64,000 bases of DNA from Actinomycetota bacterium (GTDB taxonomy: Bacteria; Actinomycetota; Geothermincolia; Geothermincolales; RBG-13-55-18), in the NCBI GenBank assembly GCA_016931915.1, contig JAFGDU010000046.1, forward strand, positions 410 through 64,409. The letters run 5' to 3'. Made by a program: the position numbers and the translations under genes. Below the pieces are notes generated by a model. The model was not told where the DNA came from, did no database searches, and worked only from the letters and a program-made list of their open reading frames with translations. Positions 34,877 to 50,213 of the stretch are shown piece by piece. Numbering within the stretch: the first letter of the stretch is position 1; each line of letters opens with the position of its first letter.

Positions 34877-35980
34877 ATGGACAGGGGAAGAATGGAAACG
34901 GATCGCAAGCCGGTGAGTATTTTCTCGCTCATCCTGCTGATCCTCATGGCCGTAGTGATACTTTTCCTGGTGCTGGTACAGAACGTGGACCGGTTTTCAG
35001 ACTTCTTCGGCAGCACCACCTTCAAGATCATATTCGACGTCGCCCTGGTTATGGGCTTGATCCTCTTCGTGGCTTATATCTTCACGCGTACCGCCGACTA
35101 CAACAAGAGGCTGGAGAGCATGGTTGACCGGTTGCAGAAATCGAATATGCTGCTTTCGGTACTGAACGAAATCCAGTCCAGCGCCAATGCCAACCTGGAT
35201 GCCCAGGGGCTTCTCGAAGCCTCCCTCGAGGCGGTCATGCCCCTTACCTCCTCGCTGGGAACCATCTACATCCTGGACGAGGATACGGGGCGCCTCGAGC
35301 CCCGTGCACGCTATGGCACCGATACGCCCCTGCAGGAACTGCCCGCCTTCGGGGTAGGGGAGGGGATAGTCGGCATGGTCGCCCAGTCGGGCGAGGCGAT
35401 CGAAGATAAGGGCGGCGAAGGAGCTTCACAACGGTCCGGCATGGTGCGCTATGCTCTGCCGGTCAAGGCAGGGAACAGGGTGATGGGGGTGATGGTGGCC
35501 GGGACCACCAAGGGCTCCTACACGGAGGAGGAGAAGACCCTGTTGCAAGCCGTATCAGAGGTCCTGGGCAACTCACTCACCAACGCCAAGCTCTATAACC
35601 TCACCAGGCGAGCGCTCGATACCACCAAGAAGACCCAGGGCTACCTGGAGAGTTTTATCAACGAGGCGCGCATGGGTGTTATGGTGCTCGATGAAAGAGG
35701 CGCGGTGATGATCGTCAACCAGGAGGCGGAGCGCTTTCTGGGAATCGAGCATAAAGACCTCATGGGGCACAGCGCCATTGAGATGCTGCGCAGCCTGGAT
35801 AGCAGGGGGCAACAACTGGCCCAGGGCTTCCAGGGTTGTTTCCGGGATAGACGGGGATTCCAGTATACACAGCCCGTATACGACGATCCCGCGACACAAA
35901 CCGTATTGGTCAATGTTTTCCCGCTGTTCAGGGAGAAAGGCGAGCTCATCGGTGCTGCAGCAACCATAAATAGGTCCTAA
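34877..35980 (+). CDS. Membrane-anchored GAF + PAS sensor protein without recognisable output domain
   Basis: Two TM helices, a GAF-like region (GEGIVGMVAQSGEAI) and a PAS-like region (GVMVLDERGAVMIVNQEAERFLG). The ORF ends with no kinase, GGDEF or HTH domain. Confidence 0.65.
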   Translation: MDRGRMETDRKPVSIFSLILLILMAVVILFLVLVQNVDRFSDFFGSTTFKIIFDVALVMGLILFVAYIFTRTADYNKRLESMVDRLQKSNMLLSVLNEIQSSANANLDAQGLLEASLEAVMPLTSSLGTIYILDEDTGRLEPRARYGTDTPLQELPAFGVGEGIVGMVAQSGEAIEDKGGEGASQRSGMVRYALPVKAGNRVMGVMVAGTTKGSYTEEEKTLLQAVSEVLGNSLTNAKLYNLTRRALDTTKKTQGYLESFINEARMGVMVLDERGAVMIVNQEAERFLGIEHKDLMGHSAIEMLRSLDSRGQQLAQGFQGCFRDRRGFQYTQPVYDDPATQTVLVNVFPLFREKGELIGAAATINRS

Positions 35981-36658
35981 GCCTGTCGCAGCATCTCATA
36001 CATGCTCCCAGTCCGCCATGAATCCCTTCCCTTCATATGGAGAGAAAGTGCTCATTACTCTGATGTCATGAGACAGCGTTTTTGGCTCCCTTGCAGCAAC
36101 TCATAAAGGAGGGCCAATTGGAAGCAGCTGACCTGAGGGGCCAGCTGCTTTCCGGGTGGGGCGTTGGACTTTAAAAGTCCTATACATATTGTCGGCTATA
36201 ATCCGTTTACTTGGTATCGACCTTTAGTATTAGAGAACCTGCTGTTTTACGAGAAAATGCCTATTTTGGTAGTATTGCTTAAGGCAAAACCTTTACTCGC
36301 GGTCAATATCTACCATGACCGCCTATGCGGTGCCGCCGGCCATGCGATCAGCGGGAGAAGCGCGCCTGAGGCCCTTGAGATTCGCGCATGACGATCATCC
36401 ACCCTTACCGTCAGGTACGGGTGGAAAGGGCCGGGCGGTATGGGTTATTATTTAATTTGTTCGCTCATAGCAGTACGGGCACAAAGGAACGCGAGCGTGA
36501 GTGGCGGGGTAGAGGGAACAGGGATCGCAGCTCACGAACCACACCTGCAGCAGCTTTTAGCTTCGCTGAAACCGCTCCTTAACGGCGGCGTCGATACCGC
36601 CAGTCAAGCATAGTAGGGTCTCGAAAGTCTGGTTCAGTCATCAAAGGGGAGGGAGAAG

Positions 36659-38380
36659 ATGGAAAAAAACTTCAAGTGCTGGCCGAAGGGAGTCTACAAA
36701 AACCTGTCCTACCCGGAGGTACCCATTCAACAGATGCTGCGCTCCGCAACCCTGCAGTGGCCATGGCGTAACGCCATTATCTTCGGGGGGATGGAGATAA
36801 CCTTCCAGGAGCTGGACACCCTGTCCGACCGTTTTGCGACCGCCCTGGCCGCCATGGGGGTGAAGAAAGGGGACCGGGTGGGCATCCATCTTCCTAACTG
36901 CCCGCAGTTCGCCATCGCTTATTACGGGTTGCTCAAGGCCGGGGCCATCTTCGTGCCCCTGAGCCCACTGCTGGCGGAGAGGGAGATAGATTTCCAGCTC
37001 AACGACGCCGGGGTGGAGACCTTCATCGGGCTGGACATGCTCTTCGGCGCGCCACAGCAGGTCATACCGAATACGCCGGTAAAGAGGACCGTCATCGTAA
37101 GCCTGGCGGACTGTTACCCGCCCCTGTCTGCGCCGGTGAAGATGCTGCAGAAGCAGCCGGTGCCCGAGGGGACCATAGATTTCGTTACCCTCGTCACAGA
37201 CTACCCGGCGGAGCCTCCTCAGCTGGAGTTCAACGCCAGGGAGGACCTGGCCCACATCGCCTATACCGGCGGCACGACCGGGACCCCGAAGGGGGTCATG
37301 GTCACCCACTTCAACGGCGTGGCGAACTGCTGCCAGTTCGCCTACTGGTTCGGGGGGGGAGACATCCTCTACGAGGAAGGGATGTTCAAGCTCAAGCGCA
37401 TGGAGGGCGACCGGGATGAGGACCACGCCATCGGGCAAGGGGCGGAGATCTCCCTTATCGTCGTGCCCTGGTTCCATGCCATGGGGGCCATCGGCTATCT
37501 ATCCATGCAGCTCCTGGGCGGAAACACCCTGGTGGTGTTCCCGCGTTTCGACCCCACCGAGTACCTGCAGGCGATCAACAAGTATCGCGCAACGGTATTC
37601 GGGGGCGCCCCGCAGCTCTTCATACCCCTGGTGGAGAACCCGCTCTTCGAGGAGATCGACATGTCGGATATCCGCATGGTCGCCTCCGGGGCGGCCCCCA
37701 TACCCCACCATCTCCTAGAGACCCTGACGGATAAGATACCAGGGGTGATCTGCGAGGCCTACGGCCTCTCGGAGTGCACCATGGGGTGCTGCGCCAATCC
37801 TCCCACCCGCGAGGGATTCCGCCTCGGCTCCGTCGGCCTGCCCATGCAGGACACGGAGATAAAGATAATGGAGGCCGAGGAGGGGAAGGAGGAGATGCCG
37901 GTAGGGGAGATAGGGGAGATCTGCATCAAGGGCCCCCAGGTCATGCAGGGCTACTGGAACAAGCCCGAGGAGACGGCACAGGTGCTCAAGGACGGCTGGC
38001 TCTACACCGGCGATATCGGTAAATACGACGAGGACGGATATATCTACATCGTCGACCGCAAGAAGGACATGCTCATCTACAAGGGCTACAACGTCTATCC
38101 CCGCGATCTCGAGGACGTCATCAACGAACACCCCATGGTCGCCCAGTCCGCGGTGGTGGGTAAGTACGACGAGAACAAGGGCGATATCCCCATCGCCTTC
38201 GTCGAGTTGGTCCCGGGGGGCAGCGTCTCCGAGGAGGAACTGCTGGAATACACGAACGGCAAGCTTGCCGCCTATAAAAAGATAAGGCTGATCAGGATAG
38301 TCGAGGCCCTGCCGGCCAGTGGAGCCGGAAAGATCCTGCGGCGTGAGCTGCGTGACCAGGCCCAGGATTTCGAGGTTTGA
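36659..38380 (+). CDS. AMP-forming acyl-CoA ligase (long/medium-chain fatty acid-CoA ligase family)
   Basis: AMP-binding motif IAYTGGTTGTPKGVMVTH, plus YGLSECT, WLYTGDIG and a C-terminal GKILRRELR. Confidence 0.9.
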   Translation: MEKNFKCWPKGVYKNLSYPEVPIQQMLRSATLQWPWRNAIIFGGMEITFQELDTLSDRFATALAAMGVKKGDRVGIHLPNCPQFAIAYYGLLKAGAIFVPLSPLLAEREIDFQLNDAGVETFIGLDMLFGAPQQVIPNTPVKRTVIVSLADCYPPLSAPVKMLQKQPVPEGTIDFVTLVTDYPAEPPQLEFNAREDLAHIAYTGGTTGTPKGVMVTHFNGVANCCQFAYWFGGGDILYEEGMFKLKRMEGDRDEDHAIGQGAEISLIVVPWFHAMGAIGYLSMQLLGGNTLVVFPRFDPTEYLQAINKYRATVFGGAPQLFIPLVENPLFEEIDMSDIRMVASGAAPIPHHLLETLTDKIPGVICEAYGLSECTMGCCANPPTREGFRLGSVGLPMQDTEIKIMEAEEGKEEMPVGEIGEICIKGPQVMQGYWNKPEETAQVLKDGWLYTGDIGKYDEDGYIYIVDRKKDMLIYKGYNVYPRDLEDVINEHPMVAQSAVVGKYDENKGDIPIAFVELVPGGSVSEEELLEYTNGKLAAYKKIRLIRIVEALPASGAGKILRRELRDQAQDFEV

Positions 38381-38406
38381 GCGGCAACAACAGGGGTGAG
38401 TATTGG

Positions 38407-38431
38407 GGGCCCGATTTATTCGGGCCCTTTT
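38407..38431 (+). terminator. Intrinsic terminator after the acyl-CoA ligase
   Basis: GGGCCCG-atttatt-CGGGCCC followed by TTTT. Confidence 0.75.
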
Positions 38432-38998
38432 CGCTTGGCCTCACGAAGGGTGGGTGTAAGAGGTGGGGGACATGACGGGTTTACGGAAAAGCGATATGAG
38501 AAGATATCTACTTTACATAAGATATATTATCGGCGGTACTGATGCGTAGCGGCCTCCCAGGACTATATATGAACGCCCCGGCATCTATCCGACATGAGAT
38601 CACTTCCCCCGCTTACGCTGCCCCTGGAGGTCCCGTCAGAACTGACAAGACCTCTTCCGCATCGGGTTGACCCTACCGCTTGCTGATCCAAGCGCCGCTA
38701 CTACTTTCATACGTCTTTTTACCTGACGAGGCTGTCGCTCCGTCCCTCGCCCCTAAGAGCCAGGCTGGCAGACAGATCCGACATGATCTGGCATGATATA
38801 CGAAATCCTTGATGCGCCACATAAAACCCCTATATATGCCGGCAAGATAGCCCCCAAAGTTACAACATACATACAGTGTAATAATGTATATTATGGCACC
38901 GGTTACAATTTTTCTTACTCAAAGGTAACCTGTATACTCGTTCTTGGAGATTCAGGACGCCAGGGGTTGCCATTATCTATTGTAAAGGGGGATATGAT

Positions 38999-40051
38999 AT
39001 GGCTGGTACCAAGGTCTGTCCTTATTGCGGCGTCCCGAAGGAGTTCTCCAAGGAGAATACCTGGAACTCCGACGGCACCATCACCCAGACGAAGAACCCG
39101 GACCACCGCGTGCTCTTCTACGAGGCCGAGGGCATGAACCGCATGCTCGCCAATCTCGAGCAACTGGTCGGCGTACTTATAGACCGCATCGTCATCGAGG
39201 GCAAACGCAAATCTACCTACAATTACCTGCAGGGGATGTTCTCGGGGATAAAACTGTTGATCGTCAAGGCACTGCTGCGACGCAGGGTATACGAGACCAT
39301 CTCGGCCCGTGGCGCCATGCTGGGCTACGGCCATTACGAGCTCCTGGATTTAAAGGCCGGCGAGTTCATCAAGGTCTTCGGGCGCAATATATATTCACGC
39401 ACCCTTTTCAGCGGCGATATAGCCGCCGTCTTCAACCTGGTGGAGGGCATCCCGGCCGGGCTGGAGTTCGAGGAGAAAGACGGCGGGACGGTAATTACCG
39501 TAGTGCCCGGCGAAGAGCTCGAGGAGGAGATCGCGACCCGCCTCGAGCGCAAGGTGCTGATGCCCACACCGGGCGATATAGCCTACGACCGCTGCCCCAA
39601 GTGCGGCATACCCCTGGAGTTCAAGGACTATACCTGGGACCTGGAGGCCGGCACCATCACCGACGATAACACGGGGAGGAGGATGGCCATCCTCGGCTCG
39701 GAGGGCATCGAGTCCGTTTTTCGTGAACTCGAGGCCGAACTGGGCGAGGAGATATCCAGGACCATTATAGAGGCCCAGCGCATCTACGTCGTAGAGACCC
39801 TGCACCTGGAGGAGGTGCAGCAGCATCCCGATTACCTCGTGCGCCAGCTGGCCCTGCGGGGGATGGGCAACGTAGTCTCTTTCGATATCTCCGAGGGCGG
39901 TATCCAGGCGACGGTGGAAAACGCCCTGCCCCACCTGTTGGTGGTGGGGTTGCTGCAGGGGATTTTCGAGCTCTTCAGCGGCAAGGGCTCCGACCTGAGC
40001 TATGATTACAACGACAGAGGAACCCTCACCTTGAACGCAAAGACCAGGTGA
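38999..40051 (+). CDS. Hypothetical protein made of two tandem [CPxCG zinc-knuckle + V4R-like] modules
   Basis: Internal duplication: CPYCGVPKEFSKENTWNSDGTIT...EAEGMNRMLANLEQLVG (aa 7-) against CPKCGIPLEFKDYTWDLEAGTIT...GSEGIESVFRELEAELG (aa 199-). The fold guess (V4R, small-ligand binding) is from pattern only. Confidence 0.55.
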   Translation: MAGTKVCPYCGVPKEFSKENTWNSDGTITQTKNPDHRVLFYEAEGMNRMLANLEQLVGVLIDRIVIEGKRKSTYNYLQGMFSGIKLLIVKALLRRRVYETISARGAMLGYGHYELLDLKAGEFIKVFGRNIYSRTLFSGDIAAVFNLVEGIPAGLEFEEKDGGTVITVVPGEELEEEIATRLERKVLMPTPGDIAYDRCPKCGIPLEFKDYTWDLEAGTITDDNTGRRMAILGSEGIESVFRELEAELGEEISRTIIEAQRIYVVETLHLEEVQQHPDYLVRQLALRGMGNVVSFDISEGGIQATVENALPHLLVVGLLQGIFELFSGKGSDLSYDYNDRGTLTLNAKTR

Positions 40052-40151
40052 ACGTCCCGGTGGCCGCTGCCTGTGCGTAAGCGGTTTTCCCCCGCCCTGC
40101 GTCAGGGAACCCGCCCTTTCCGCTTCGCGCTTGTGGGATATCCCGCGGCGC

Positions 40152-40568
40152 TTAACTCGGCCTGAAGGCCAGGTAGGTCGTGGCTTCGTCCCCCTCTCCG
40201 CTGTGCACGAACTCCGCCTTCATGGGGGTCCCTATCTTGATGGAATCGGGGTTCGAGGCCTCTACGCCCTCTATGCGGGCAACCATCCTGGGGCCTTCCT
40301 TGAGGGTCACCACCCCGGTGCAGTAAGGGTTTTTGCGATCGTAGCCCTGGGCGACCATGTGGGGTGGAGCAACGAATATGCAGGTGAAAGCGGCAAGTTC
40401 CCCTTCACCCACCATCTCGTGCCACTCCATGTCCTCGCCGAAGCAGGAGAGGCAGAAATGTCGCGGTGGAACGTAGAGCTGCCCGCATTTCACGCATTTC
40501 GAGCCCATGAACTTGTCCTCGTCCAGGAACTGGCGGTATGTGATGTCGCTGAAAGGCCGGTCTTCCAT
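40152..40568 (-). CDS. Zn-ribbon/OB-fold DUF35 protein (BbsA-like thiolase partner)
   Basis: CVKCGQLYVPPRHFCLSCFG rubredoxin-like ribbon followed by an OB fold. It lies 4 nt downstream of the thiolase gene. Confidence 0.85.
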   Translation of the reverse strand: MEDRPFSDITYRQFLDEDKFMGSKCVKCGQLYVPPRHFCLSCFGEDMEWHEMVGEGELAAFTCIFVAPPHMVAQGYDRKNPYCTGVVTLKEGPRMVARIEGVEASNPDSIKIGTPMKAEFVHSGEGDEATTYLAFRPS

Positions 40569-40572
40569 GGCT

Positions 40573-41841
40573 CTATCTCCTTTCGAATATGGTGAAGGTG
40601 CAGGTGCCCCCGGTGCCGCCCAGGTTCTGGGTCGCGCCGATGTATAGGTCCCTGCCGGGGATCTGCCGCTCGCCCGCCTCGCCCCGCAACTGCTTCCATA
40701 TCTCGAACATCTGGGCCGTTCCCGTGGCGCCGACGGGATGCCCCTTGCACTTGAGGCCTCCCGAGGTGTTGATGGGCATGCGCCCGTCGCGCCTCGTCTC
40801 GCCCTCCGCTACGGCCTTGAAAGCCTTCCCCTCCTCGAAGAATCCCAGGTCCTCGATGTGGATCATCTCGGCGATACTGAAGCAGTCGTGCACCTCGGCG
40901 AATTGTATGTCCTTTGCGGTGAGCCCCGAGGTGCCGTAGGCCTCGGCGGCGGCGTTCTTGTTGGCCTCGAAGGAAGTTAGGCTGGGGCAGGCGTGAAGGC
41001 CCCTGCCGCTCCCCTGCCCGAATCCCACTACGTAGATGGGATCGTCGGTGAAATTCTTGGCTAACTCCTCGGCCACCAGGAGTATGCAGCTCGCCCCGTC
41101 GCTTATGGGGCAGCAGTCGTAGAGGTGCATGGGCCAGGCCACCGGCGGGTTGAAGGAGGGGTCCCAGAGGGCCTCCTTCTCGTCGGCCCATTCGGGTACG
41201 GGCTGCCCCTTCTTCTCCGCGCGCGCCTTCTTGGCCTGCATGAGGTCGGCTATGGTCTGCTTGAACTGCGCTTTGGGGTTCAGGGGGGCGTTACTGTGGC
41301 TCTTGATGGTGATGTTCATGAGGTCTTCCCGGCCCGCTCCGTATTTATGGAAGTAGGCGGTGGCCAGGGCCCCGAAGACGCCGGGGAAGGTGTAACCGGC
41401 CTCTCCCTCGTAGGGTGATGTTGCCAGGGCCAGCCCCTCGGTGACCTCCTCGGTAGTGCATTTGGACATCTCCTCGACCCCTCCGGCCAGCACGATATCG
41501 TACATGCCCGATGCGATGGCCATGAGTCCGTCCCTCATGGCCAGGGTGCTGGAGGCGCAGGCGCCCTCCGTCCTCGTCACCGCCTTGGGCGCCAGCCCGG
41601 CCAGGTCCGCGATGATGGGGCCCCAATGCGCCTGGTGAACGAAGAAATCGTTGCTGAAATTGCCGATCCATGCGGCTTGTATGTCCGCCGGGTCGATCCC
41701 CTTGTCCACGTTCGCGAGCATCTCGCTGTAGGCCTCGGCGAAGACGTCCTTGGAGTCCTTGTCAGGGAACATCCCGAAATTCGACATACCCGCTCCGACG
41801 ATGGCCACTCCCCTGCCCAACTTTCTCTTTCCTGTCATCAC
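40573..41841 (-). CDS. Thiolase-domain protein, SCP-x/BbsB type
   Basis: GVAIVGAGMSNFG, TEGACASSTLAMRDG (active Cys), HDCFSIAE and GGTGGTC near the C-terminus. Confidence 0.88.
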   Translation of the reverse strand: MMTGKRKLGRGVAIVGAGMSNFGMFPDKDSKDVFAEAYSEMLANVDKGIDPADIQAAWIGNFSNDFFVHQAHWGPIIADLAGLAPKAVTRTEGACASSTLAMRDGLMAIASGMYDIVLAGGVEEMSKCTTEEVTEGLALATSPYEGEAGYTFPGVFGALATAYFHKYGAGREDLMNITIKSHSNAPLNPKAQFKQTIADLMQAKKARAEKKGQPVPEWADEKEALWDPSFNPPVAWPMHLYDCCPISDGASCILLVAEELAKNFTDDPIYVVGFGQGSGRGLHACPSLTSFEANKNAAAEAYGTSGLTAKDIQFAEVHDCFSIAEMIHIEDLGFFEEGKAFKAVAEGETRRDGRMPINTSGGLKCKGHPVGATGTAQMFEIWKQLRGEAGERQIPGRDLYIGATQNLGGTGGTCTFTIFERR

Positions 41842-41939
41842 CCGACCTCCTTAAGTCAGTACCGGGACCGGGCGGTCAACTGTCCCATGAGCCGTCATCA
41901 TGACGCTCCAGCCGCCCGCAGGTGTCTTTATAACGCTGT

Positions 41940-42347
41940 TCAATCGATCTTGATGCTTCCCGTTCTTTCCTCTATGAAAGCGACGATATCTTCGGTCAAC
42001 GTTCCGGGGCCGAAGACGCCGTCCATGCCGATCTCCTTCAACTCCACGTGGTCCTGTTCCGGAAAGACCCCTCCGACCAGGAGAAGGAAATCATCGCGCG
42101 CTCCCTGCGCCTCCAGCTCCTCGACCAGTTCCCGGCTCCATTCCAGGTGAGCACCTGAGTGGACCGAGAAGCCTATGACGTCGACGTCCTCCTGTATGGC
42201 CGCCTCCACCACTCCGGCTACGGTCTTGAAACCGAAGAATATGGTCTCCATGCCCGCCTCCGAGAGCGCCTTGGAGACGGTCATTATCCCCCGCCAGTGC
42301 CCGTCAAGGCCCGGCTTGAAGAGAAGCACCCTTATCTTCTTCTCCAT
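41940..42347 (-). CDS. Coenzyme-B12-binding small subunit of acyl-CoA mutase
   Basis: KPGLDGHWRG contains the DxHxxG base-off/His-on motif, within a flavodoxin-like fold (DVIGFSVHSGAH...LLLVGG). Confidence 0.88.
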   Translation of the reverse strand: MEKKIRVLLFKPGLDGHWRGIMTVSKALSEAGMETIFFGFKTVAGVVEAAIQEDVDVIGFSVHSGAHLEWSRELVEELEAQGARDDFLLLVGGVFPEQDHVELKEIGMDGVFGPGTLTEDIVAFIEERTGSIKID

Positions 42348-42362
42348 CTCACCCCTCCCCTC

Positions 42363-44042
42363 TCAAGCCACGAATGGCAGCTGCCAGATGCCCCAGACCT
42401 CCCGGTAGACACCGGTTATCTCTCCCAGGCTAGCCCCGGCCATGGTGAGCTCGCTCACCACCGGCAGGACGTTCTCCCTCTTCTCGCAAACCTCCCGCAG
42501 CTGGTCGAGGAGGCCGGCTACCTTCGACTCGTCCCTATCCTGCCGCAGCTTCTTCAGGCGGTCTTTCTCGATCTCGGCAGCACGGGGATTGGTGCGGAAG
42601 GGCGGGGTCGCCTCCTCGCCCTCCATGACGTAGCAGTTGACGCCGATTATGCGCTCTTCGCCGCTCTCCTGGTCGCGGCGGCGCTTGTTGAAAGCCTTGC
42701 TCATCTCGTTGAAGAGCCAGCCCGTGTTCAGGGCCTCGACCACTCCACCCATCTCCTCGATGCGCATGAAATAATCCCAGATGCGCTCCTCCAGCTCACG
42801 CGTGAGCGACTCCACGTAATAGGATCCCGCCAGGGGATCGACGACGTTCGCCGCCCCGGTCTCCTCCTGGATGAGTTCCTGTGTGCGCACCGCCAGGCGC
42901 ACCGACTCCTCCGAGGGCAGGCATATGGCCTCGTCGTAGGAGTTGGTGTGCAGGGATTGCGTACCCCCCAGCACGGCCTCCAGCGCCTGGTAGGCGGTGC
43001 GAATTATGTTCACCATGGGCTGCTGTGCGGTGAGGGAGCATCCCGCGGTCTGCACGTGGAAGCGGAAGCGGTAGGCGTCGGGGTTTTCGGGATGGTAGCG
43101 TTCCTTCATCAGCCGGTACCAGAGCTTGCGGGCGGCTCGGTACTTGGCTACCTCCTCGAAGAAATCGCGGTGGGCCGAGAGGTGGAAGGCAAGGCGGTGC
43201 ACGAAGTCGTCGATCTTCCATCCTCGCCTCAGCAGTTCCTCGATGTGGGCGACGGCATTGGCGAGGCCCATGCCGATCTCCTGCACGGCATCGATGCCGC
43301 CCTCGCGGTAGTTGTAGGTGGTGAAGTTGATGGGGTTCCAGCGCGGCGCTTCGCCCATGGCGGTGCAGTACTCGATGAGGTCACAGGCTAGCTTCAACAG
43401 GTCGGCCGGCTTGAGCGAGCCCCACGGGATATATCCTATGGTCATGGTGAGGATATCGTTCTGGGTGGTCCCGGCCAGCTGTTCCTTGCGCATCCCACGC
43501 TCCCTGGCCACGTTGAAGTACATGGAGGTGATAGCGGCCGAGGTCATGGGCTCCACTACCAGGGCTACGCTCATCTTGTCTATGGGCAGGTCCTCGACCA
43601 GTGCCTCCACCCCGCGGATGGAGTAGAGGGGCACCCCCTCCTTGCCCACCTCGTGGGCCGCACCGTGGACTTCCTGATCGGGATCGACTCCCGAGAAGGT
43701 CAGGGAGTCGACGGCGGCCGAGAACCCGGTCTCTCCCTCCTCGTACAGCATCCTCCAGCGATCGTTGGTCTCCTCCGGCGTTCCATGTCCGCTGAACATA
43801 CGTATGGTCCAGTGCCTTCCCCGGTACATGGTGGGGTACACGCCACGCGTATAGGGCGGCTTCCCGGGAAAACCGATATCTGCGAGGTAATCGATGTCGG
43901 AGGTATCGAGAGGCGTATAGAGATCCTTGACCGGGATTCCCGCATCGCTCTTGAACTCCGCCTTGTGCTCCTCCCAGCCCTCCTTCTCCTTTCTCCAGTC
44001 CTCCAATCCTTGCCTGATCTCATCACTGTCAGCCATCTTCAT
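42363..44042 (-). CDS. Acyl-CoA mutase large (substrate-binding TIM-barrel) subunit, divergent
   Basis: PPYTRGVYPTMYRGRHWTIRMFSGHG, GTTQNDIL, FHVQTAGCSLTAQQP, GGTQSLHTNSYDEAICLP and VVDPLAGSYYVESLT are methylmalonyl-CoA-mutase family blocks. The start is ATG 44042 or 44036; the 799-aa ORF-track N-extension overlaps the ACAD gene and is rejected. Confidence 0.88.
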   Translation of the reverse strand: MKMADSDEIRQGLEDWRKEKEGWEEHKAEFKSDAGIPVKDLYTPLDTSDIDYLADIGFPGKPPYTRGVYPTMYRGRHWTIRMFSGHGTPEETNDRWRMLYEEGETGFSAAVDSLTFSGVDPDQEVHGAAHEVGKEGVPLYSIRGVEALVEDLPIDKMSVALVVEPMTSAAITSMYFNVARERGMRKEQLAGTTQNDILTMTIGYIPWGSLKPADLLKLACDLIEYCTAMGEAPRWNPINFTTYNYREGGIDAVQEIGMGLANAVAHIEELLRRGWKIDDFVHRLAFHLSAHRDFFEEVAKYRAARKLWYRLMKERYHPENPDAYRFRFHVQTAGCSLTAQQPMVNIIRTAYQALEAVLGGTQSLHTNSYDEAICLPSEESVRLAVRTQELIQEETGAANVVDPLAGSYYVESLTRELEERIWDYFMRIEEMGGVVEALNTGWLFNEMSKAFNKRRRDQESGEERIIGVNCYVMEGEEATPPFRTNPRAAEIEKDRLKKLRQDRDESKVAGLLDQLREVCEKRENVLPVVSELTMAGASLGEITGVYREVWGIWQLPFVA

Positions 44043-44080
44043 CAACCCCTCATATCGAATCTGATCCGCTCTCCCGCCCG

Positions 44081-45220
44081 CTATCCCTTCAGCAATGCCC
44101 GCGAGATCACCAGCCTCTGTATCTGGTTGGTGCCCTCGTATATCTGGGTGATCTTGGCGTCGCGCATCATGCGCTCCACCGGATGGTCCTTCATATAACC
44201 ATACCCCCCCATCACCTGGATGGCATCGGTGGTTACCCGCATGGCCGTATCCGATGCCTTCATCTTGGACATGGCCGAGAAGATCGAGAGGTTGGGATCC
44301 TTGCTGTCCGCCATGCCGGCGGCCTTGTACACCAGCAGTCGAGAGGATTCCACCTCGGTTGCCATGTCCGCCAGCATGAAACCCACTCCCTGCATCAGTC
44401 CTATGGGCTTCCCGAAGGCCTGGCGATCCCGCGCCCATGCTACGGCGCACTCCAGGGCGCCCTGGGCTATTCCCAAAGCCTGCGCGCCCACCAGTGGCCG
44501 CGAGTTGTCGAGGGTCTTCATGGCGGTCACGAATCCGCTGCCCTCTTCCCCCAGGCGGTTCTCTGCGGGGACACGGCAATCGTCGAATACAAGCTCCGTG
44601 ACCTGGGCGGCGCGCAGGCCCATCTTGTCCTCCGTCTTGCCTGCGGAAAGGCCTTCCACGTCCCCCACGCAGAAGGCGCTTATGCCCCTGTATCCCTTCT
44701 CCGGGTCGGTCATGCAGAAAACGGAGTGGATCTTCGCCAACCCCCCGTTGGTGATGAAACACTTCTCCCCGGATATGACGTACTCGTCACCGTCCCGGCG
44801 GGCCACGGTCTTGGTGGCACCGGCGTCGGAACCGGAGTCGCGCTCCGTGAGGCAGAACGCCGCCAGTTCCTCGCCCCTGGCCGCGGCGGGCAGATACTTC
44901 TGCTTCGTCTCCTCCGAGCCGGCTATGACGATGGGGTAAACCGCCAGCTTCTGCACCACGAATATAAGGGAGGTGGTGGCGCATATACGCGCCAGTTCTT
45001 CGCCTACTATGCAGCAGGAGAGAAGATCCGCTCCCGATCCCCCATATTCCTCGGGGATGGCGTAGCCGAGCAGGCCCTGGGAGGCCAGCATTTTCTGTAT
45101 ATCCCAGGGGTATTCTCCACTGCGGTCGATATCCGCCGCACGCGGTGCGACCTTCTCCTCCGCCAGTCTACGTATCTCCTTGCGCAGCGCCTCCTGCTCG
45201 GACGTCAAACTGAATCCCAT
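44081..45220 (-). CDS. Acyl-CoA dehydrogenase
   Basis: Classic ACAD pattern: CLTERDSGSDAG, GEKCFITNG, QAFGKPI and YEGTNQIQRLVISR. Confidence 0.92.
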   Translation of the reverse strand: MGFSLTSEQEALRKEIRRLAEEKVAPRAADIDRSGEYPWDIQKMLASQGLLGYAIPEEYGGSGADLLSCCIVGEELARICATTSLIFVVQKLAVYPIVIAGSEETKQKYLPAAARGEELAAFCLTERDSGSDAGATKTVARRDGDEYVISGEKCFITNGGLAKIHSVFCMTDPEKGYRGISAFCVGDVEGLSAGKTEDKMGLRAAQVTELVFDDCRVPAENRLGEEGSGFVTAMKTLDNSRPLVGAQALGIAQGALECAVAWARDRQAFGKPIGLMQGVGFMLADMATEVESSRLLVYKAAGMADSKDPNLSIFSAMSKMKASDTAMRVTTDAIQVMGGYGYMKDHPVERMMRDAKITQIYEGTNQIQRLVISRALLKG

Positions 45221-45323
45221 ATCTACCTCCGTTTTGTGTACGAATTACTTCACCGCCGCCGGAAAGAGGATGCGTTGATCCATCCCGCCCCCATCGGACT
45301 CCTCTGTCGCTGCGATCATGCCG

Positions 45324-46088
45324 TTAGAACGTGAACAGGCTTATCCCGCCGCTGACCTCTACGGTTTCACCGGTTACGAAGCTGGCCTCCTCGGAGGCAA
45401 GAAAGGCGATGACCTCCGACAGCTCCCTTGGGTCCCCGGAACGGCGTATCGCGACCCTCTTTATAATGCGTTCGCGGAAGGGCTCGGCCACATCGTAAAA
45501 ACTTCCCGCATCGAATACTCCCAGCACCACGGCGTTGCAGGTGATGTTCTTGCGCGCGCCCTCAAGGGCAACCGTCTTTGTAAGCCCTATCAAGCCGGCC
45601 TTGGTGGCGGCGTAACTGCACTGGCCGAATCCACCCATGGTGCCCGTTACCGAGGAGACGTTTATGATGCGCCCCCAGGCTTTCTCGGCCATACCCGGGA
45701 ATACGGCCTTGATGAGCAGGAAGGGCGCGCTGAGGTTTACGGCCACGTCGTTGTCCCAATCCTCCTTGCTCATGTCGGTAACGGTGATGGCGCGCACGAT
45801 GCCGGTAGCGGCGTTATTGACCAGGATATCCACGCTATCCAGCTCGCGCGCAACTCTTTCCACGCCTTCATTGATAGAAGACTCGTCGGAGAGATCCATC
45901 TTGACCGCAATCGCCTTGCGGCCCTTGGCCTCTATCTCCTTGACCACGTCCTGGGCCTTGGCCTCGTTGCGGTTATAAACCAGCGCCACGTCAGCACCGT
46001 GCTCTGCCAGCACCAGGCCGTGTACCCTGCCCAATCCTCCCGAACCACCGGTCACCAGCGCTACCTTGCCCTCAAGAGACATAAACAC
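45324..46088 (-). CDS. SDR-family oxidoreductase (FabG / 3-hydroxyacyl-CoA dehydrogenase-like)
   Basis: VALVTGGSGGLG, LVNNAA, and catalytic S...YAATK. Confidence 0.88.
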   Translation of the reverse strand: MFMSLEGKVALVTGGSGGLGRVHGLVLAEHGADVALVYNRNEAKAQDVVKEIEAKGRKAIAVKMDLSDESSINEGVERVARELDSVDILVNNAATGIVRAITVTDMSKEDWDNDVAVNLSAPFLLIKAVFPGMAEKAWGRIINVSSVTGTMGGFGQCSYAATKAGLIGLTKTVALEGARKNITCNAVVLGVFDAGSFYDVAEPFRERIIKRVAIRRSGDPRELSEVIAFLASEEASFVTGETVEVSGGISLFTF

Positions 46089-46117
46089 CCCTCCTCACCG
46101 AAAGCCTACATGCCGAT

Positions 46118-46540
46118 CTACCCCTTGCTCAGCAATGGTTTACCCGTATGGTAAGCCCAGCCATGGCACTGGGCTACGATAACCCCCTCCGCGTCCGTCA
46201 CCTTCATGCGGTAGAAACCCATCTTGCCCGCACGTTGTACCAGCTCGACCTCGGCCGTCATATCTCCGACTGTTTTAGGAGCTGCCAGGAAGTCTATTCC
46301 CACCGATAACGCCATCGCTCTGCTCCCGAAGGAATTCGCTGCCGCCCCGAAGGCCACGTCGGCCAGGGAGAACATCACCCCGCCATGTATCATACCCATA
46401 AAGTTCAGGTGCTCTTCCCTGAGCTTCATGGAGACCATTGCCCATCCAGGCCTTATATCTGTCAGCTCTGCACCGAGGCTGGACGCGTATCTATCCTTTG
46501 CTATATATTCCCGCGTTTCTTCCCCTACCCTATTCTCCAC
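46118..46540 (-). CDS. PaaI-family hotdog thioesterase
   Basis: GMIHGGVMFSLADVAFG motif. GTG start follows GGGAG. Confidence 0.8.
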   Translation of the reverse strand: MENRVGEETREYIAKDRYASSLGAELTDIRPGWAMVSMKLREEHLNFMGMIHGGVMFSLADVAFGAAANSFGSRAMALSVGIDFLAAPKTVGDMTAEVELVQRAGKMGFYRMKVTDAEGVIVAQCHGWAYHTGKPLLSKG

Positions 46541-46695
46541 CTGCGCTCCCTTTTCTATTTACTTGTACGATACCTGCAGCGATACTCAAGCAAGCTCAGC
46601 CGCATTCGCCTCTTATACCCAATACGGAAAGGGTGTAGACCCATTTTGCTGCTATCTCTGCCCCATCGAGAAGAGAAAATTCTGCTACCGCCAGG

Positions 46696-46762
46696 AAACT
46701 TAAAAACTATATGGCGTTTCTTAGTTTATGCTATTCAAGCATCCCCGTCTCCCCGGTGTCAA
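46696..46762 (-). promoter_or_regulatory. Promoter candidate with overlapping AT-rich inverted-repeat operator ahead of the mutase operon
   Basis: On the minus strand: TTGACA (46762-46757), 18 nt, TTGAAT (46738-46733). The inverted repeat AAACTAAGAAAC-N8-GTTTTTAAGTTT (46727-46696) matches in 10 of 12 arm positions. Confidence 0.4.
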
Positions 46763-46904
46763 GATGTAGACGGTCTCTTTACGGGGCCTGCGAACGCGAG
46801 GTCTCTTGCGCCCCGCATAGATTCCCTGTCCCGCCATTCCCCTCTCGCATTGGTATTTCCCGCCGTCGCCTCGGCTGCCCGATGCATGGGCTCCCTTTGC
46901 TGTA

Positions 46905-47516
46905 TTATACCCCTTGACTCATACGGTCTTCTGCTCCCCTGTTCTCTTTTCTTACTATACCCTCCATGAGGATCTTCATGAATGCCGAATACACCCCGTC
47001 CAGGCTCAAGCCGCTCTCGATCAACAGGTAGGGGCTGCTGGAGAGATCCACGATGCCCTGCACCATGTAGGCGAAGACGACGGGGTTGACATCGGAGCGG
47101 AATTCCCCCTGCCTCGCCCCCTCCTCGATGATACTCGTGACAGCGCTTACGATCTTGCGGTAGAAATCGCCGTAGACGCTGAAAACGTCCGGGAAGAACG
47201 TCTCCACTTCCTTGACCAGGGACGGTTTGATATAGGACACCTCGTCCACCACGTGCTTGCTCATGAGATACAGCTTGGTCATGGCGTCTGCATCGAGATC
47301 CAGGATCTCCTGCATGCGCTTGAGGATCTTTCCGGCCCTGCGGTTGAGCGCGGTCGTGAAGAGCTCGTCCTTGGAAGAGAAGGCCTCGTAGATGGTCTTC
47401 TTGCTCATGCGCAGTCTCTGCGAGAGCTCGTCCATGTTGAAGCGGCGGTATCCGACCTCAAAGGCATACTGTTCAGCCTCTTCAAGAATCCTCTTCGACC
47501 TCTCGTCTCCCGTCAC
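46905..47516 (-). CDS. TetR/AcrR-family transcriptional regulator
   Basis: HTH FNMDELSQRLRMSKKTIYEAFSSKDELF. Confidence 0.88.
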   Translation of the reverse strand: MTGDERSKRILEEAEQYAFEVGYRRFNMDELSQRLRMSKKTIYEAFSSKDELFTTALNRRAGKILKRMQEILDLDADAMTKLYLMSKHVVDEVSYIKPSLVKEVETFFPDVFSVYGDFYRKIVSAVTSIIEEGARQGEFRSDVNPVVFAYMVQGIVDLSSSPYLLIESGLSLDGVYSAFMKILMEGIVRKENRGAEDRMSQGV

Positions 47517-47536
47517 CTCACACCCCTTGCGCTTGT

Positions 47537-48085
47537 TCAGACCTTGCTCCCGGACAGGCCCTCATCCTCTATTCTAGCAACAATCCTACGCAGCCAACGC
47601 GACTCCCCCCGGTATAGTGACTGCTCGTGGGCCAGGATATCCAGGAATATCCCATCCGCGATGTCTTCCAGCATATCCCTTTCGCGGCGCAACCGCCTGG
47701 CTTGTCTTTCCAGGAAAGCAATGCGTGCAAGCAACGCATCCTTTGCCTCGTTCCCCAGGCACGTGATGAACGCAATCCCCACGGGGGTATCTAAGCGCAG
47801 CGGCTCCTCGCTTGCACACAGCGAATACACCAGGTCCTTGAGTCTATCGCGACCTAATGAGGTCAAGGCGTAGACGCGTTTTTCGGGCAGGTTCCCCTCC
47901 TTTTCTGTCCACGATGTCAGGCATCCTTCCGCTTCCAGGCGTGCCAGCGCCTTGTATACCGCGACTTTGCTCACTCGCGTCCACCTTCGCATGCCCCGCT
48001 CTTCCATCTCCCGCAGGAGAACGTAGCCATGCCTCTCCCCCTCCGCCAGGAGCCCGAGGACCATGGTCGCGACCTTCGAGACCAC
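47537..48085 (-). CDS. PadR-family transcriptional regulator
   Basis: VLGLLAEGERHGYVLLREMEE...VAVYKALARLEAEGCL...RVYALTSLG. The GTG at 48085 lies 9 nt after AAGGAG and is preferred over 48094. Confidence 0.85.
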   Translation of the reverse strand: MVSKVATMVLGLLAEGERHGYVLLREMEERGMRRWTRVSKVAVYKALARLEAEGCLTSWTEKEGNLPEKRVYALTSLGRDRLKDLVYSLCASEEPLRLDTPVGIAFITCLGNEAKDALLARIAFLERQARRLRRERDMLEDIADGIFLDILAHEQSLYRGESRWLRRIVARIEDEGLSGSKV

Positions 48086-48100
48086 GTTGCCCACCTCCTT

Positions 48101-48135
48101 ATAGTTAACTATTATCTATTTAAATATTAACTATT
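48101..48135. promoter_or_regulatory. Palindromic operator candidates upstream of padR
   Basis: Perfect 12-bp palindrome ATAGTTAACTAT (48101-48112). A related half-site copy AATATTAACTATT lies at 48123-48135. Confidence 0.4.
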
Positions 48136-48280
48136 CGCAGGCGATGTCCTTCTCCACCCGCGATAGCGATTTGAGTATGGTAGCGACGGCGTTTCCTTCA
48201 GGACTTAAAACGGAAGCCACTCGTGCAGGTCCACGAGGGATGGGCTGGTAATTCGTACGCCAGCCATCACGTCTGCGGTA

Positions 48281-48913
48281 CTAAGGATGAGGGACCTCGA
48301 GCCTGCCGTCGGCTATGCTTATAAGGCGGTTCACTATCTCTCCGCAGAGCATGCGCAATTCGAAGGCGTTCAGATAATCGGTCGCCGATATGTCGAACAG
48401 TATGCGGGCATTGGGGGGGAATTCATCATCACCGCGCCAGATAATAAACAGGAGCGGGAGGCGCGGGAAGGTCTTGATCACCATGCCCAGGTCTCCCTGG
48501 TCTACTTCCCTGCCGCCCAGTGCCTCGCAGGCTGCTCTCATGCCCTCGAAGTCATCTCCGAACCTCCGGCACAACCTGTCCTCCACCGTGTCCGCGAAAC
48601 TCTTGGTGTAGAACATGCCGTCCTTCAGCTCGCGGTACGGTACCCACTGATTTGCCAGCGGCGTTGCCCTGGCGTTGGCCATATAAAGCACTGCGAGGAG
48701 CTTGATAACGTAGGTGGCGAGAAATTCCGGAGCCTGGAATTCGAGCTCAGGAAAACTGATGCGGATCTCCCAGCGCATAAATGACAGCCTGAAGACGCCG
48801 TTCTCGTACGGCAAGGCGGACCTCTCGGCTATATCGGCGGGATCGCTCTTTCTAAGTTCTTCGCTGGGTTCCGCAAAGGGGTCCTGTGCTTTGCCCTGCT
48901 CCTCGTCCGTCAT
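48281..48913 (-). CDS. DUF3786-like protein
   Basis: WVPYRELKDG...LLFIIWRGDDEFPPNARILFDISATDYL resembles the DUF3786 pattern as I remember it. Confidence 0.5.
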   Translation of the reverse strand: MTDEEQGKAQDPFAEPSEELRKSDPADIAERSALPYENGVFRLSFMRWEIRISFPELEFQAPEFLATYVIKLLAVLYMANARATPLANQWVPYRELKDGMFYTKSFADTVEDRLCRRFGDDFEGMRAACEALGGREVDQGDLGMVIKTFPRLPLLFIIWRGDDEFPPNARILFDISATDYLNAFELRMLCGEIVNRLISIADGRLEVPHP

Positions 48914-49246: not shown

Positions 49247-49966
49247 TCAATGCGACGTAGAGACCAAACCCCTCACCTGCGTAGGAACCCACCGCGAAAG
49301 TGCCTCCGCCCATTCCACCATCGTGTCCTCGGGGTATCCTCGCGCGCCGGTGTAAGCGGGGTCAAGGGTTATATCCGAGCGGAACTGTTGCAGCACCAGC
49401 ATTCTCGCGCCCCCTATCCTCTCCGCAAGGGACTCGAGATCCTCTCGACCTACGAGTCCCGGAACAACCGTGCAGCGGAACTCGTGCTCCAGGCCGCTGC
49501 CGATTATGGTGTCGATCGACTCCCCGATACGCAGCGGGTCCACCGGCCTTCTCACCACATCCGCATACCTGTCGAGTGATGTCTTGAGATCCATGGCCAC
49601 GAACTCGACCGCCCCCTGCGACAAAACCTCCGCCAGCAGCCGCGGCCGCGAGCCGTTGGTGTCCAGTTTCACGGCCATGCCCAGGTCCCTCAGCCCGTCA
49701 CACAGATGCGGCAGGTCATCGTGGATGGTGGGCTCCCCCCCGGTGATCGATACCCCGTCTATCCATCCTCTCCGCTCTTTCAGGTAATGGGCAAGACCGT
49801 CCCAGGTGATGTTGTCCGCGTTCTCTCCCACCTCTATCAGCTCAGGATTATGGCAGTAAGGGCACCTGAAATTACAGCCGGCGAGGAAGAGCACCGAACA
49901 TAGCTTACCCGGCCAATCCAGCATACTCGTGGGCAGGAGAGCCCTCATGTTCTCGAGGCAGGACAT
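49247..49966 (-). CDS. nrdG: Anaerobic ribonucleoside-triphosphate reductase activating protein (radical SAM)
   Basis: LDWPGKLCSVLFLAGCNFRCPYCHNPEL, ITGGEPT, and operon context. Confidence 0.9.
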   Translation of the reverse strand: MSCLENMRALLPTSMLDWPGKLCSVLFLAGCNFRCPYCHNPELIEVGENADNITWDGLAHYLKERRGWIDGVSITGGEPTIHDDLPHLCDGLRDLGMAVKLDTNGSRPRLLAEVLSQGAVEFVAMDLKTSLDRYADVVRRPVDPLRIGESIDTIIGSGLEHEFRCTVVPGLVGREDLESLAERIGGARMLVLQQFRSDITLDPAYTGARGYPEDTMVEWAEALSRWVPTQVRGLVSTSH

Positions 49967-49967
49967 T

Positions 49968-50213
49968 TTAATTCAAGTGATCGGAGATATCCGTGGTAGA
50001 CGGCACGGTACAACGCCAGGCGAAGACCTCGCTCCCACTGTCATCTACCACCACTATCGAAGGCGTGCACAATACGCTGTAATAGGCCGCCTCCGCCAGG
50101 CCGTCCGCCTGCTCGACGTCGTATATCTCCGTCGCGGGGAAACAGCTGGCTACCTCCTTAGCAGCTGGACACTTTTGACAGTCCTGCTTCACGAATACCT
50201 TCAGATGCTGCAC
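49968..50213 (-). CDS. Small thioredoxin/glutaredoxin-fold protein (CxxC)
   Basis: KVFVKQDCQKCPAAKE...TPSIVV matches the redoxin beta-alpha-beta pattern. It lies between nrdD and nrdG and overlaps the nrdD 3' end by 56 nt. Confidence 0.65.
   Translation of the reverse strand: MQHLKVFVKQDCQKCPAAKEVASCFPATEIYDVEQADGLAEAAYYSVLCTPSIVVVDDSGSEVFAWRCTVPSTTDISDHLN

Follow-up and report, generated by a model that had tools for sequence, protein, structure and literature searches.

A divergent clade of two-subunit B12-dependent acyl-CoA mutases and its conserved operon in Geothermincolia-type Actinomycetota

Which reaction is catalyzed by a coenzyme B12-dependent acyl-CoA mutase whose active-site residues match none of the typed classes? 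This question is raised by an eleven-gene block at positions 36659–48094 of a 64,000-nucleotide stretch of Actinomycetota DNA (contig JAFGDU010000046.1; the whole stretch is referred to here as the window), in which the genes for both mutase subunits are accompanied by genes for oxidation and thiolysis enzymes and for two regulators. Rearrangement of carbon skeletons is catalyzed by few enzymes, the acyl-CoA mutases among them, and each of the newer specificities (isobutyryl-CoA mutase, ICM; ethylmalonyl-CoA mutase, ECM; 2-hydroxyisobutyryl-CoA mutase, HCM; pivalyl-CoA mutase, PCM) opened both a pathway and a biocatalytic tool. The reading favored here, which we hold tentatively and at somewhat less than even probability, is that the operon encodes an isobutyryl-/n-butyryl-CoA-type mutase, possibly acting on C5 analogues too, that feeds a C4 β-oxidation module.

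Gene calls were taken from a table of open reading frames (ORFs) with their translations, and families were assigned by Pfam and NCBIfam scans of the window ORFs. These confirmed all eleven genes of the block, in the order and on the strands given in a preliminary description of this DNA, which had also correctly recognized a two-subunit B12 acyl-CoA mutase accompanied by two repressors and by enzymes of oxidation and thiolysis. The large (substrate-binding) subunit of the mutase is a protein of 557 aa encoded at 42363–44036 on the minus strand, with a possible alternative in-frame start at 44045. It scores well above the cut-offs of the superfamily models (PF01642, 558 bits, cut-off 22; TIGR00641, 529 bits, cut-off 304) and below those of the equivalog models for methylmalonyl-CoA mutase (MCM; NF006944, 441 versus 876 bits) and IcmF (243 versus 1500). 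The best solved relative of the large subunit is HcmA (PDB 4r3u, 1e-128), and further solved relatives are the human and Propionibacterium MCMs (approximately 1e-97 to 1e-90) and IcmF (1e-56). The B12-binding small subunit (135 aa, 41940–42347, minus strand; PF02310) scores 113 bits against TIGR00640 (cut-off 57), and its DxHxxG motif, LDGHWRG, aligns to the LDGHDRG of 2yxb and HcmB, which are its best and second best solved relatives, respectively (HcmB as 4r3u_C). The division into two subunits of these lengths resembles that of IcmA/IcmB (Streptomyces cinnamonensis type, EC 5.4.99.13; approximately 560 and 135 aa) and the split architecture of HcmA/HcmB from Aquincola tertiaricarbonis. The mutase shares its superfamily, its fold, and conserved CoA and cofactor contacts with MCM (MutB/MMUT); unlike MCM, its small subunit is a separate protein, and the cluster provides no epimerase or carboxylase context. 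Together, these features indicate a genuine two-subunit adenosylcobalamin-type acyl-CoA mutase that is probably active.

The active site was probed by aligning 119 full-length homologues of the large subunit (59–100% identity) with MutB, human MUT, and HcmA fragments. Residues are numbered as in MutB, anchored on the Y89F entry 5req, and the residues at MutB 89/116/207/244 were used as a four-position signature. In MCM, Tyr89 and Arg207 bind the substrate carboxylate, while His244 is catalytic and hydrogen-bonded to the thioester carbonyl. The specificity residues of HcmA are Ile90 and Asp117, of which Asp117 binds the hydroxyl group (RCM carries Val117), and the key residues of IcmA are Phe80 and Gln198, the latter at the position of MCM Arg207. 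In the homologues of the window subunit, the Tyr89 position (Ile90 in HcmA) is Phe in 119 of 119, the Ala116 position (Asp117 in HcmA) is Ala in 118, the Arg207 position (Gln208 in HcmA) is Tyr in 100, Phe in 13, and Ile in 5, and the His244 position is Asn throughout (119/119). The resulting clade signature, F/A/Y/N, matches no typed class, and the Tyr89/Arg207 pair of MCM is absent from every one of the 119 sequences. Further substitutions are found at the positions of Met245 (Tyr, 118/119), Gln246 (Arg, 119/119), and Phe287 (His, 119/119). At sixteen positions, MutB, human MUT, and HcmA share one residue, while a different one is conserved in at least 95% of the clade; the changes of His244 to Asn and Phe287 to His are among these. 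Side chains that serve CoA binding and radical handling in MCM (Arg87, Gln197, Tyr243, Glu247, Arg283, His328, Gln330, Asn366, and Glu370) are invariant or near-invariant, as are Tyr75, Ser114, and Thr195. The acyl pocket consequently looks remodelled, with the CoA and radical contacts retained. Because the mutase is without the carboxylate-binding Tyr89/Arg207 pair, carboxylated substrates such as methylmalonyl-CoA and substituted succinyl-CoAs are unlikely.

The place of the clade in the superfamily was surveyed by an exhaustive HMMER search of 1.84 billion representatives, which returned 18,842 hits, and the 150 best of these were classified by signature. The best superfamily representative is only 48% identical to the window large subunit. 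Among these best 150 of 18,842, 40 carry Y/A/R/H (MCM-like), 9 carry F/A/Q/H (ICM-like), and 1 carries I/D/Q/H (HCM-like), where the F/A/Q/H class is taken by us to be ICM from the Phe80 and Gln198 of IcmA. With 475 bits, the top F/A/Q/H representative (P0124, 43% identity) outscores all other typed relatives, including HcmA (434 bits) and the MCMs (approximately 305–329 bits). Fewer than half of the best 150 representatives, which are drawn at 50% identity (P0121–P0270), carry an MCM, ICM, or HCM signature, and the set contains dozens of other signature combinations, many without His244. Many unassigned mutase clades thus exist, which tempers the surprise of finding an F/A/Y/N clade.

In a neighbour-joining tree, the deep nodes of which are unreliable, the F/A/Y/N sequences from Actinomycetota, Asgard archaea and Syntrophoarchaeum, and Peptococcaceae form one clade with F/A/C/N as its sister. 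The clade lies apart from the typed classes, including the F/A/Q/H representatives, in a tree that has unreliable deep nodes and includes no authenticated IcmA. Placement of the mutase outside the MCM, ICM, HCM, and IcmF types, as proposed in the preliminary description, is supported by the sub-cut-off equivalog scores, the distinct signature, and the separate clade in the distance tree; with the same caution about deep nodes, the large subunit is not found inside a characterized clade that has the same gene neighbourhood. Close homologues (60–65% identity) are widespread in Asgard archaea, Candidatus Syntrophoarchaeum, and Peptococcaceae. As judged from these comparisons, what is new here is the clade itself, with its invariant and unprecedented active-site signature, its lost catalytic His, and its broad distribution in prominent anaerobes. 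The superfamily, the logic of the operon, and the partner enzymes are of kinds that are already known. It is possible, though on balance doubtful, that the F/A/Y/N enzymes form a new functional class, with a substrate or a mode of thioester activation unlike those of MCM, ICM, ECM, HCM/RCM, and PCM, and that Asgard archaea, the alkane oxidiser Ca. Syntrophoarchaeum, and Actinomycetota of the subsurface share in them a widespread, overlooked step tied to Bcd/electron transfer flavoprotein (ETF)-type acyl-CoA metabolism.

The enzymes encoded beside the mutase offer clues to its substrate. Upstream of the large-subunit gene on the minus strand is a gene for an acyl-CoA dehydrogenase (ACAD) of the short-chain/butyryl-CoA type (379 aa, 44081–45220), which contains all three ACAD domains. 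Its PDB matches to short-chain ACADs and Bcd, including the Bcd of Bcd-Etf complexes, reach 1e-126 to 1e-96, while those to isovaleryl-, short/branched-, and isobutyryl-CoA dehydrogenases are weaker (1e-78 to 1e-72). The next gene encodes a short-chain dehydrogenase/reductase (SDR) of the 3-oxoacyl or (3R)-hydroxyacyl-CoA dehydrogenase type (254 aa, 45324–46088; adh_short, 3.7e-53), for which the FabG and acetoacetyl-CoA reductase NCBIfam models rank on top, below cut-off. The solved relatives of the SDR are 7x5j_D (4.5e-109), the (3R)-hydroxyacyl-CoA dehydrogenase 2et6 (yeast MFE-2, 5e-61), and PhaB-type acetoacetyl-CoA reductases; chain D of 7x5j, described as a 3-oxoacyl-ACP reductase, is an unusually close relative. 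The operon begins with a PaaI-type hotdog thioesterase gene (140 aa, 46118–46540, minus strand; PF03061 4HBT). Its product scores 91 bits against TIGR02286 PaaI, below the cut-off of 119, and 64 bits against the TIGR00369 hotdog domain, above cut-off, and has the PaaI structures 1psu and 2fs2 as its best solved relatives.

Downstream of the small-subunit gene, also on the minus strand, are an SCP-x-type thiolase gene (422 aa, 40573–41841; Thiolase_N and Thiolase_C_1) and, starting 4 nt beyond it, a gene for a DUF35 protein made up of a zf-ChsH2 Zn ribbon and an OB_ChsH2_C OB fold (138 aa, 40152–40568; PF12172 and PF01796). DUF35 proteins are the usual partners of SCP-x-type thiolases. Three NCBIfam models score the thiolase below their cut-offs (PRK06064, 392 versus 420; archaeal acetoacetyl-CoA thiolase NF053570, 363 versus 600; BbsB, 154 versus 750), and its best PDB match is the acetoacetyl-CoA thiolase of M. 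thermolithotrophicus (6esq, 5e-70). The pair is similar to the archaeal acetoacetyl-CoA thiolase/DUF35/3-hydroxy-3-methylglutaryl-CoA (HMG-CoA) synthase complex seen in 6esq in that the DUF35 gene immediately follows the thiolase gene. In contrast to that complex, the cluster contains no HMG-CoA synthase gene, the equivalog score is well short of its cut-off, and the pair sits in a catabolic-looking operon. The preliminary description had likened the pair to the Bbs enzymes of aryl- and alkylsuccinyl-CoA oxidation. Although the BbsAB benzoylsuccinyl-CoA thiolase of anaerobic toluene β-oxidation also combines an SCP-x-type thiolase with a DUF35 protein of the Zn-ribbon/OB families, the analogy proves weak, as the DUF35 protein reaches only 38 bits of the 250 required by the BbsA model, the BbsB structure 7pxp is matched at 1e-41, much more weakly than 6esq, relatives carry an AtoB-type thiolase instead, and the mutase is without Tyr89/Arg207. 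No other bbs genes were found among the window ORFs scanned. The remaining enzyme, an AMP-forming acyl-CoA ligase of FadD/4CL-like type (573 aa, 36659–38380; AMP-binding and AMP-binding_C), is encoded on the plus strand. Its NCBIfam matches are all below cut-off, and its PDB matches are to 4-coumarate-, feruloyl-, and fatty-acyl-CoA ligases (approximately 1e-77).

The conservation of the block in relatives was examined by mapping all window proteins onto related loci with tblastn. Genes 84–94% identical to the mutase large-subunit gene are present in nine uncultured Actinomycetota metagenome-assembled genomes (MAGs), including SURF_21 and 'Candidatus Solincola', both of which we take to belong to the Geothermincolia lineage. 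The block and its flanks occur in the same gene order in nine related Actinomycetota (Geothermincolia-type) MAGs. One of the conserved flanks encodes NrdD, its radical-SAM activase, and a DUF3786 protein; in the opposite flank are the genes for a GAF-PAS protein and a glycerophosphodiesterase. The G+C fraction of the block, 0.59–0.63, falls within the range across the window (0.48–0.66), and no mobility genes were found among the window ORFs scanned. A genomic island or recent horizontal acquisition, considered as an explanation for the block, was rejected on these three grounds. Because gene order and flanks are conserved and the G+C content is within the window range, the block is best described as an inherited operon of this lineage; the earlier designation as an orphan island does not hold, and homologues of the mutase are in any case found in Asgard archaea, Ca. 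Syntrophoarchaeum, and Peptococcaceae.

Within this conserved order, the block appears to be modular. The PadR gene is kept at the same position in L001, L002, L004, and L006–L009 (53–79% identity), as is the TetR gene in the same loci (77–89% identity). Wherever an actinobacterial version of the cluster reaches far enough upstream, the PaaI gene is kept. The ACAD gene adjoins the mutase wherever the contig of an actinobacterial locus covers its position, with L007 as the sole exception. The ligase gene is found at the same position in L001–L003, L005, and L007–L009, the thiolase/DUF35 pair is absent from L003 and L008, and the gene for a 350-aa protein described below is absent from L001, L007, and L008, which makes it a variable member of the cluster. 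The genes for PaaI, SDR, ACAD, and both mutase subunits persist down to 72–74% mutase identity (L010, L011, and L019).

More diverged neighbourhoods point to the same kind of chemistry. An AtoB-type acetyl-CoA C-acetyltransferase (482 bits) occupies the thiolase slot of L003, L010, L011, and L019, and in the last three of these loci an acetoacetate-CoA ligase gene (TIGR01217, 928 bits, cut-off 521) lies beside the small-subunit gene. In four archaeal loci on Asgard-type contigs (L017, L018, L022, and L023), divergently oriented genes for an ACAD, EtfB, and EtfA adjoin the mutase; the EtfA proteins carry an N-terminal ferredoxin (Fer4) domain, and the ACADs are 43–45% identical to that of the window. 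The large-subunit gene is directly followed by genes for the small subunit and MeaB in L018 and L022, while in L023 MeaB is encoded approximately 2.4 kb further downstream. CoA-transferase genes (L018 and L022) or a crotonase gene (L023) are also found within approximately 8 kb. In the Peptococcaceae bacterium SCADC1_2_3 (L015, 7873–11680) and in L016, two large-subunit genes of the clade, with F/A/Y/N and F/A/L/N signatures, flank a single B12-binding gene, an arrangement that suggests a hetero-oligomeric mutase. Across these loci, the recurring links of the mutase are with a Bcd-type ACAD and, in Actinomycetota, with enzymes ending at acetoacetyl-CoA. It had been stated earlier that the substrate cannot be read from the sequence. 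This now seems too pessimistic, as the conserved partners narrow the substrate to a short, uncharged, and probably C4 acyl-CoA.

The isobutyryl-/n-butyryl-CoA reading is proposed because the pocket, which has neither the Tyr/Arg pair for a carboxylate nor the Asp for a hydroxyl group, keeps an ICM-like Phe and because the partners of the mutase are C4 enzymes. The resemblance to ICM extends, on our assumption that F/A/Q/H is the ICM class, to the Ala at the HcmA Asp117 position, the Arg at position 246, and the best score among typed relatives; furthermore, butyryl-CoA, the predicted product, suits the co-conserved Bcd-type ACAD. In the proposed pathway, the free acid would be activated by the ligase (FadD-like here, of the acetoacetate-CoA ligase type in diverged relatives), and the mutase would shift the CoA-carbonyl group between neighbouring carbons to interconvert isobutyryl-CoA and n-butyryl-CoA or a close C4/C5 analogue. 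The Bcd-type ACAD would then form crotonyl-CoA, passing its electrons to an ETF encoded elsewhere, and a hydratase that is likewise encoded elsewhere would give 3-hydroxybutyryl-CoA. Oxidation by the SDR would yield acetoacetyl-CoA, and the thiolase/DUF35 pair would split this into two molecules of acetyl-CoA. The chemistry of the module is reversible, and the pathway could instead start from acetyl-CoA or acetoacetate and proceed reductively to (iso)butyryl-CoA, from which the PaaI-type thioesterase would release the acid. With respect to flux direction, we infer that the ligase suits the oxidative direction and that the thioesterase suits a reductive or CoA-rescue role.

Several observations weigh against this proposal. 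The substrate of the clade is deduced from context and pocket residues only, and the clade differs from ICM in having Tyr in place of Gln198 and Asn in place of the catalytic His244, such that the ICM substrate need not be shared. A homology search with the ICM-type representative P0124 gave generic names only, so that the identity of F/A/Q/H with ICM is not authenticated. The β-oxidation sequence is locally incomplete, as no enoyl-CoA hydratase was found among the window ORFs scanned, and each direction leaves one enzyme without a role (the thioesterase in the oxidative, the FadD-like ligase in the reductive). The closest solved relatives of the ligase act on aromatic or long-chain acids, and PaaI-type thioesterases typically act on aryl-CoAs. 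Finally, the thiolase/DUF35 pair is missing in L008, and the mutase genes of Ca. Syntrophoarchaeum and Peptococcaceae are without metabolic neighbours.

A rival reading is that the clade has a new specificity, outside MCM, ICM, ECM, HCM/RCM, and PCM, in which the invariant Asn244, Tyr207, Tyr245, and His287 would recognise or activate a novel functional group and the ACAD and SDR would process the product. This is unlikely, though a serious possibility. The signature is invariant or nearly so over 119 bacterial and archaeal homologues and matches no typed class, the sixteen clade-specific replacements affect positions that are otherwise identical in MutB, human MUT, and HcmA, and the distance tree sets the clade apart. 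Compared with ICM, the window mutase has Tyr/Phe for Gln198, Asn for His, Tyr for the neighbouring Ile, and His for the residue equivalent to MCM Phe287, and lies in a clade of its own. The lack of a local hydratase would be sensible if the mutase product already carried the needed function. Against such a novelty, the partners are ordinary C4 enzymes (the Bcd-type ACAD, acetoacetyl-CoA-type thiolases, and acetoacetate-CoA ligase), and the Phe at the Tyr89 position and the Arg at 246 are shared with the ICM-type class. No enzyme of this clade is described in the literature searched in full text (on Geothermincolia, Syntrophoarchaeum, Asgard archaea, and new acyl-CoA mutases), but coverage of that literature is incomplete and the lack of a report is consequently weak evidence. 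The missing hydratase would also be explained by a mutase of the HCM/RCM kind, which would convert 2-hydroxyisobutyryl-CoA to 3-hydroxybutyryl-CoA for oxidation to acetoacetyl-CoA by the SDR and cleavage by the thiolase. The SDR, the thiolase, and the acetoacetate-CoA ligase of relatives make up exactly the path downstream of HCM, HcmA and HcmB are the best and second best solved relatives of the large and small subunits, respectively, and the pocket Tyr, Asn, and His could hydrogen-bond a hydroxyl group. However, Ile90 of HcmA is replaced by Phe (119/119) and Asp117 by Ala (118/119), with Tyr for Gln208 and Asn for His in addition, and the Val117 of RCM is mismatched as well. Moreover, the partner that is most conserved across domains, the ACAD with ETF, has no role in the HCM pathway and is left unexplained by HCM chemistry. 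A mutase of this kind is consequently judged improbable.

Two further explanations carry far less weight. Source databases uniformly annotate the homologues as methylmalonyl-CoA mutase, homologues occur in hydrocarbon-associated Ca. Syntrophoarchaeum, Helarchaeota, and Peptococcaceae SCADC, and a DUF35/SCP-x thiolase pair is present, all of which could point to a carboxylated substrate. The enzyme would then act on methylmalonyl-CoA, on ethylmalonyl-CoA, or, in anaerobic hydrocarbon degradation, on an alkyl-/aryl-succinyl-CoA, and the pair would act like BbsAB. This is very improbable, given a pocket that is without Tyr89, Arg207, and His244 of MCM, an MCM equivalog score about half its cut-off, BbsA and BbsB scores far below theirs, and a thiolase that is nearer to acetoacetyl-CoA thiolase and is replaceable by an AtoB-type enzyme in relatives. 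Furthermore, no epimerase, carboxylase, decarboxylase, succinyl-CoA transferase, or glycyl-radical enzyme was found among the window ORFs scanned. It is also scarcely credible that the large subunit is a catalytically impaired structural or regulatory partner, like the MutA β subunit of MCM. The loss of His244 to Asn, the two large-subunit genes around one small-subunit gene in Peptococcaceae, which suggest heteromers, and the many superfamily representatives without His244 could all be read in this way. Yet, unlike in MutA-type subunits, the CoA-binding and adenosyl/radical residues are conserved in the 119 homologues, the protein is the sole large subunit of the window operon, where its partner is a B12-binding subunit with the DxHxxG motif, and the archaeal loci with MeaB genes directly after the small-subunit gene (L018 and L022) or approximately 2.4 kb further on (L023) argue for a working enzyme. 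The isobutyryl-/n-butyryl-CoA-type mutase thus remains the preferred reading.

The accessory proteins of the mutase set the window apart from one predicted ICM system. The predicted ICM cluster of Syntrophothermus lipocalidus, Slip_0757–0760, has MeaB and an adenosyltransferase (PMC5017805). The window mutase has neither adjacent to it; the scanned window ORFs include no MeaB, adenosyltransferase, crotonase (enoyl-CoA hydratase), epimerase, or carboxylase, in agreement with the preliminary description, which had reported no chaperone or hydratase.

Expression of the operon is likely to be controlled by the regulators encoded at its upstream end, a PadR-family protein (185 aa, 47537–48094, minus strand; NCBIfam PadR models, 1.5e-10) and a TetR-family protein (203 aa, 46905–47516, minus strand; PF00440 TetR_N, 4.4e-10). 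Intergenic spacers within the block are 4–103 nt, except for a gap of 364 nt between tetR and paaI and one gap of 618 nt. The tetR-paaI intergenic regions from seven related loci were aligned in a search for operators. Their sole strongly conserved block consists of a TTGACA box resembling a -35 element (46757–46762, minus strand), conserved in six of the seven regions, and an operator-like palindrome with 12-bp arms at 46696–46727, AAACTAAGAAAC-N8-GTTTTTAAGTTT in the window and AAACTAATAAAC-N8-GTTTATTAGTTT as the consensus of the relatives. The half-site of the palindrome is found once in the window, and a pattern scan of the window gave no second copy upstream of the ligase gene or the 350-aa gene. 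A consensus promoter and terminator scan called no more sites than in shuffled sequence and did not call the TTGACA box as a full promoter, and scans of the intergenic regions for short inverted repeats were uninformative; the palindrome came to light solely through the alignment of the seven loci. An RNA element in the 364-nt gap, whether a riboswitch or a leader, was rejected as unsupported, since Rfam gave no match in 35900–48400 even at E values up to 1 (the whole window has a single tRNA as its only match). What had been described as a 365-nt leader is, on this evidence, better regarded as a promoter/operator region. It is plausible that the palindrome is the operator of a repressor, either TetR or PadR, and one or both of these proteins would probably repress the operon there until an acyl-CoA or acid ligand appears.

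The two plus-strand genes of the block, which encode the ligase and an internally duplicated Zn-ribbon protein of 350 aa with two CxxC pairs (38999–40051), converge on the minus-strand operon. The ligase gene has non-coding gaps on both sides (35981–36658, 678 nt; 38381–38998, 618 nt), in which neither an Rfam match nor a copy of the operator palindrome was found. The 350-aa protein is not assigned to a family by Pfam or NCBIfam and is without a sequence match in the PDB. It has 204 unnamed homologues, often several per MAG; wherever an organism is given for them, it is an Actinomycetota MAG. The cysteine pairs C7/C10 and C199/C202 are invariant in these homologues. In a confident AlphaFold2 model (mean predicted local distance difference test score, pLDDT, of 89), a unit made up of a Zn ribbon and an α/β domain occurs twice, and Foldseek relates the α/β domain weakly (E ~2e-3) to H-NOX and to the PoxR/DmpR phenol-sensing (V4R-type) domains. 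The early guess of a V4R-like protein consequently gains weak structural support and no family match. Paralogues of this protein are encoded in L020 (6001–7053) and L021 (3332–4396), where they adjoin, divergently, a four-subunit 2-oxoacid:ferredoxin oxidoreductase or another SCP-x thiolase. Speculatively, the 350-aa protein may be specific to this lineage and sense small molecules on behalf of acyl-CoA-related operons.

The other scanned ORFs of the window encode housekeeping and regulatory proteins (RecA, RNase Y, MiaB, MiaA, DapF, HflX, Der, GpsA, NrdD/NrdG, Cmk, AroA, TyrA, and others). NrdD (50158–52998, minus strand) is a protein of 946 aa with an ATP-cone at residues 35–93 and a best NRDD-domain stretch that begins at residue 394, leaving approximately 300 residues between them without a domain match. 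Its gene is followed by those for the radical-SAM activase (49247–49966) and the DUF3786 protein (48281–48913).

The F/A/Y/N clade is named methylmalonyl-CoA mutase everywhere, yet the residues by which this activity is defined are missing from it. Where reconstructions of metabolism in Asgard archaea, Ca. Syntrophoarchaeum, and deep-subsurface Actinomycetota build on this label, for instance for propionate metabolism or alkylsuccinate rearrangement, they are probably wrong at the mutase step. The natural exchange of His244 for Asn offers a ready-made test of the role proposed for that histidine in the 1,2-shift. As an analogue of ICM, the mutase would link the valine/isobutyrate pool of these anaerobes to acetyl-CoA; otherwise, its reaction would be a new one.

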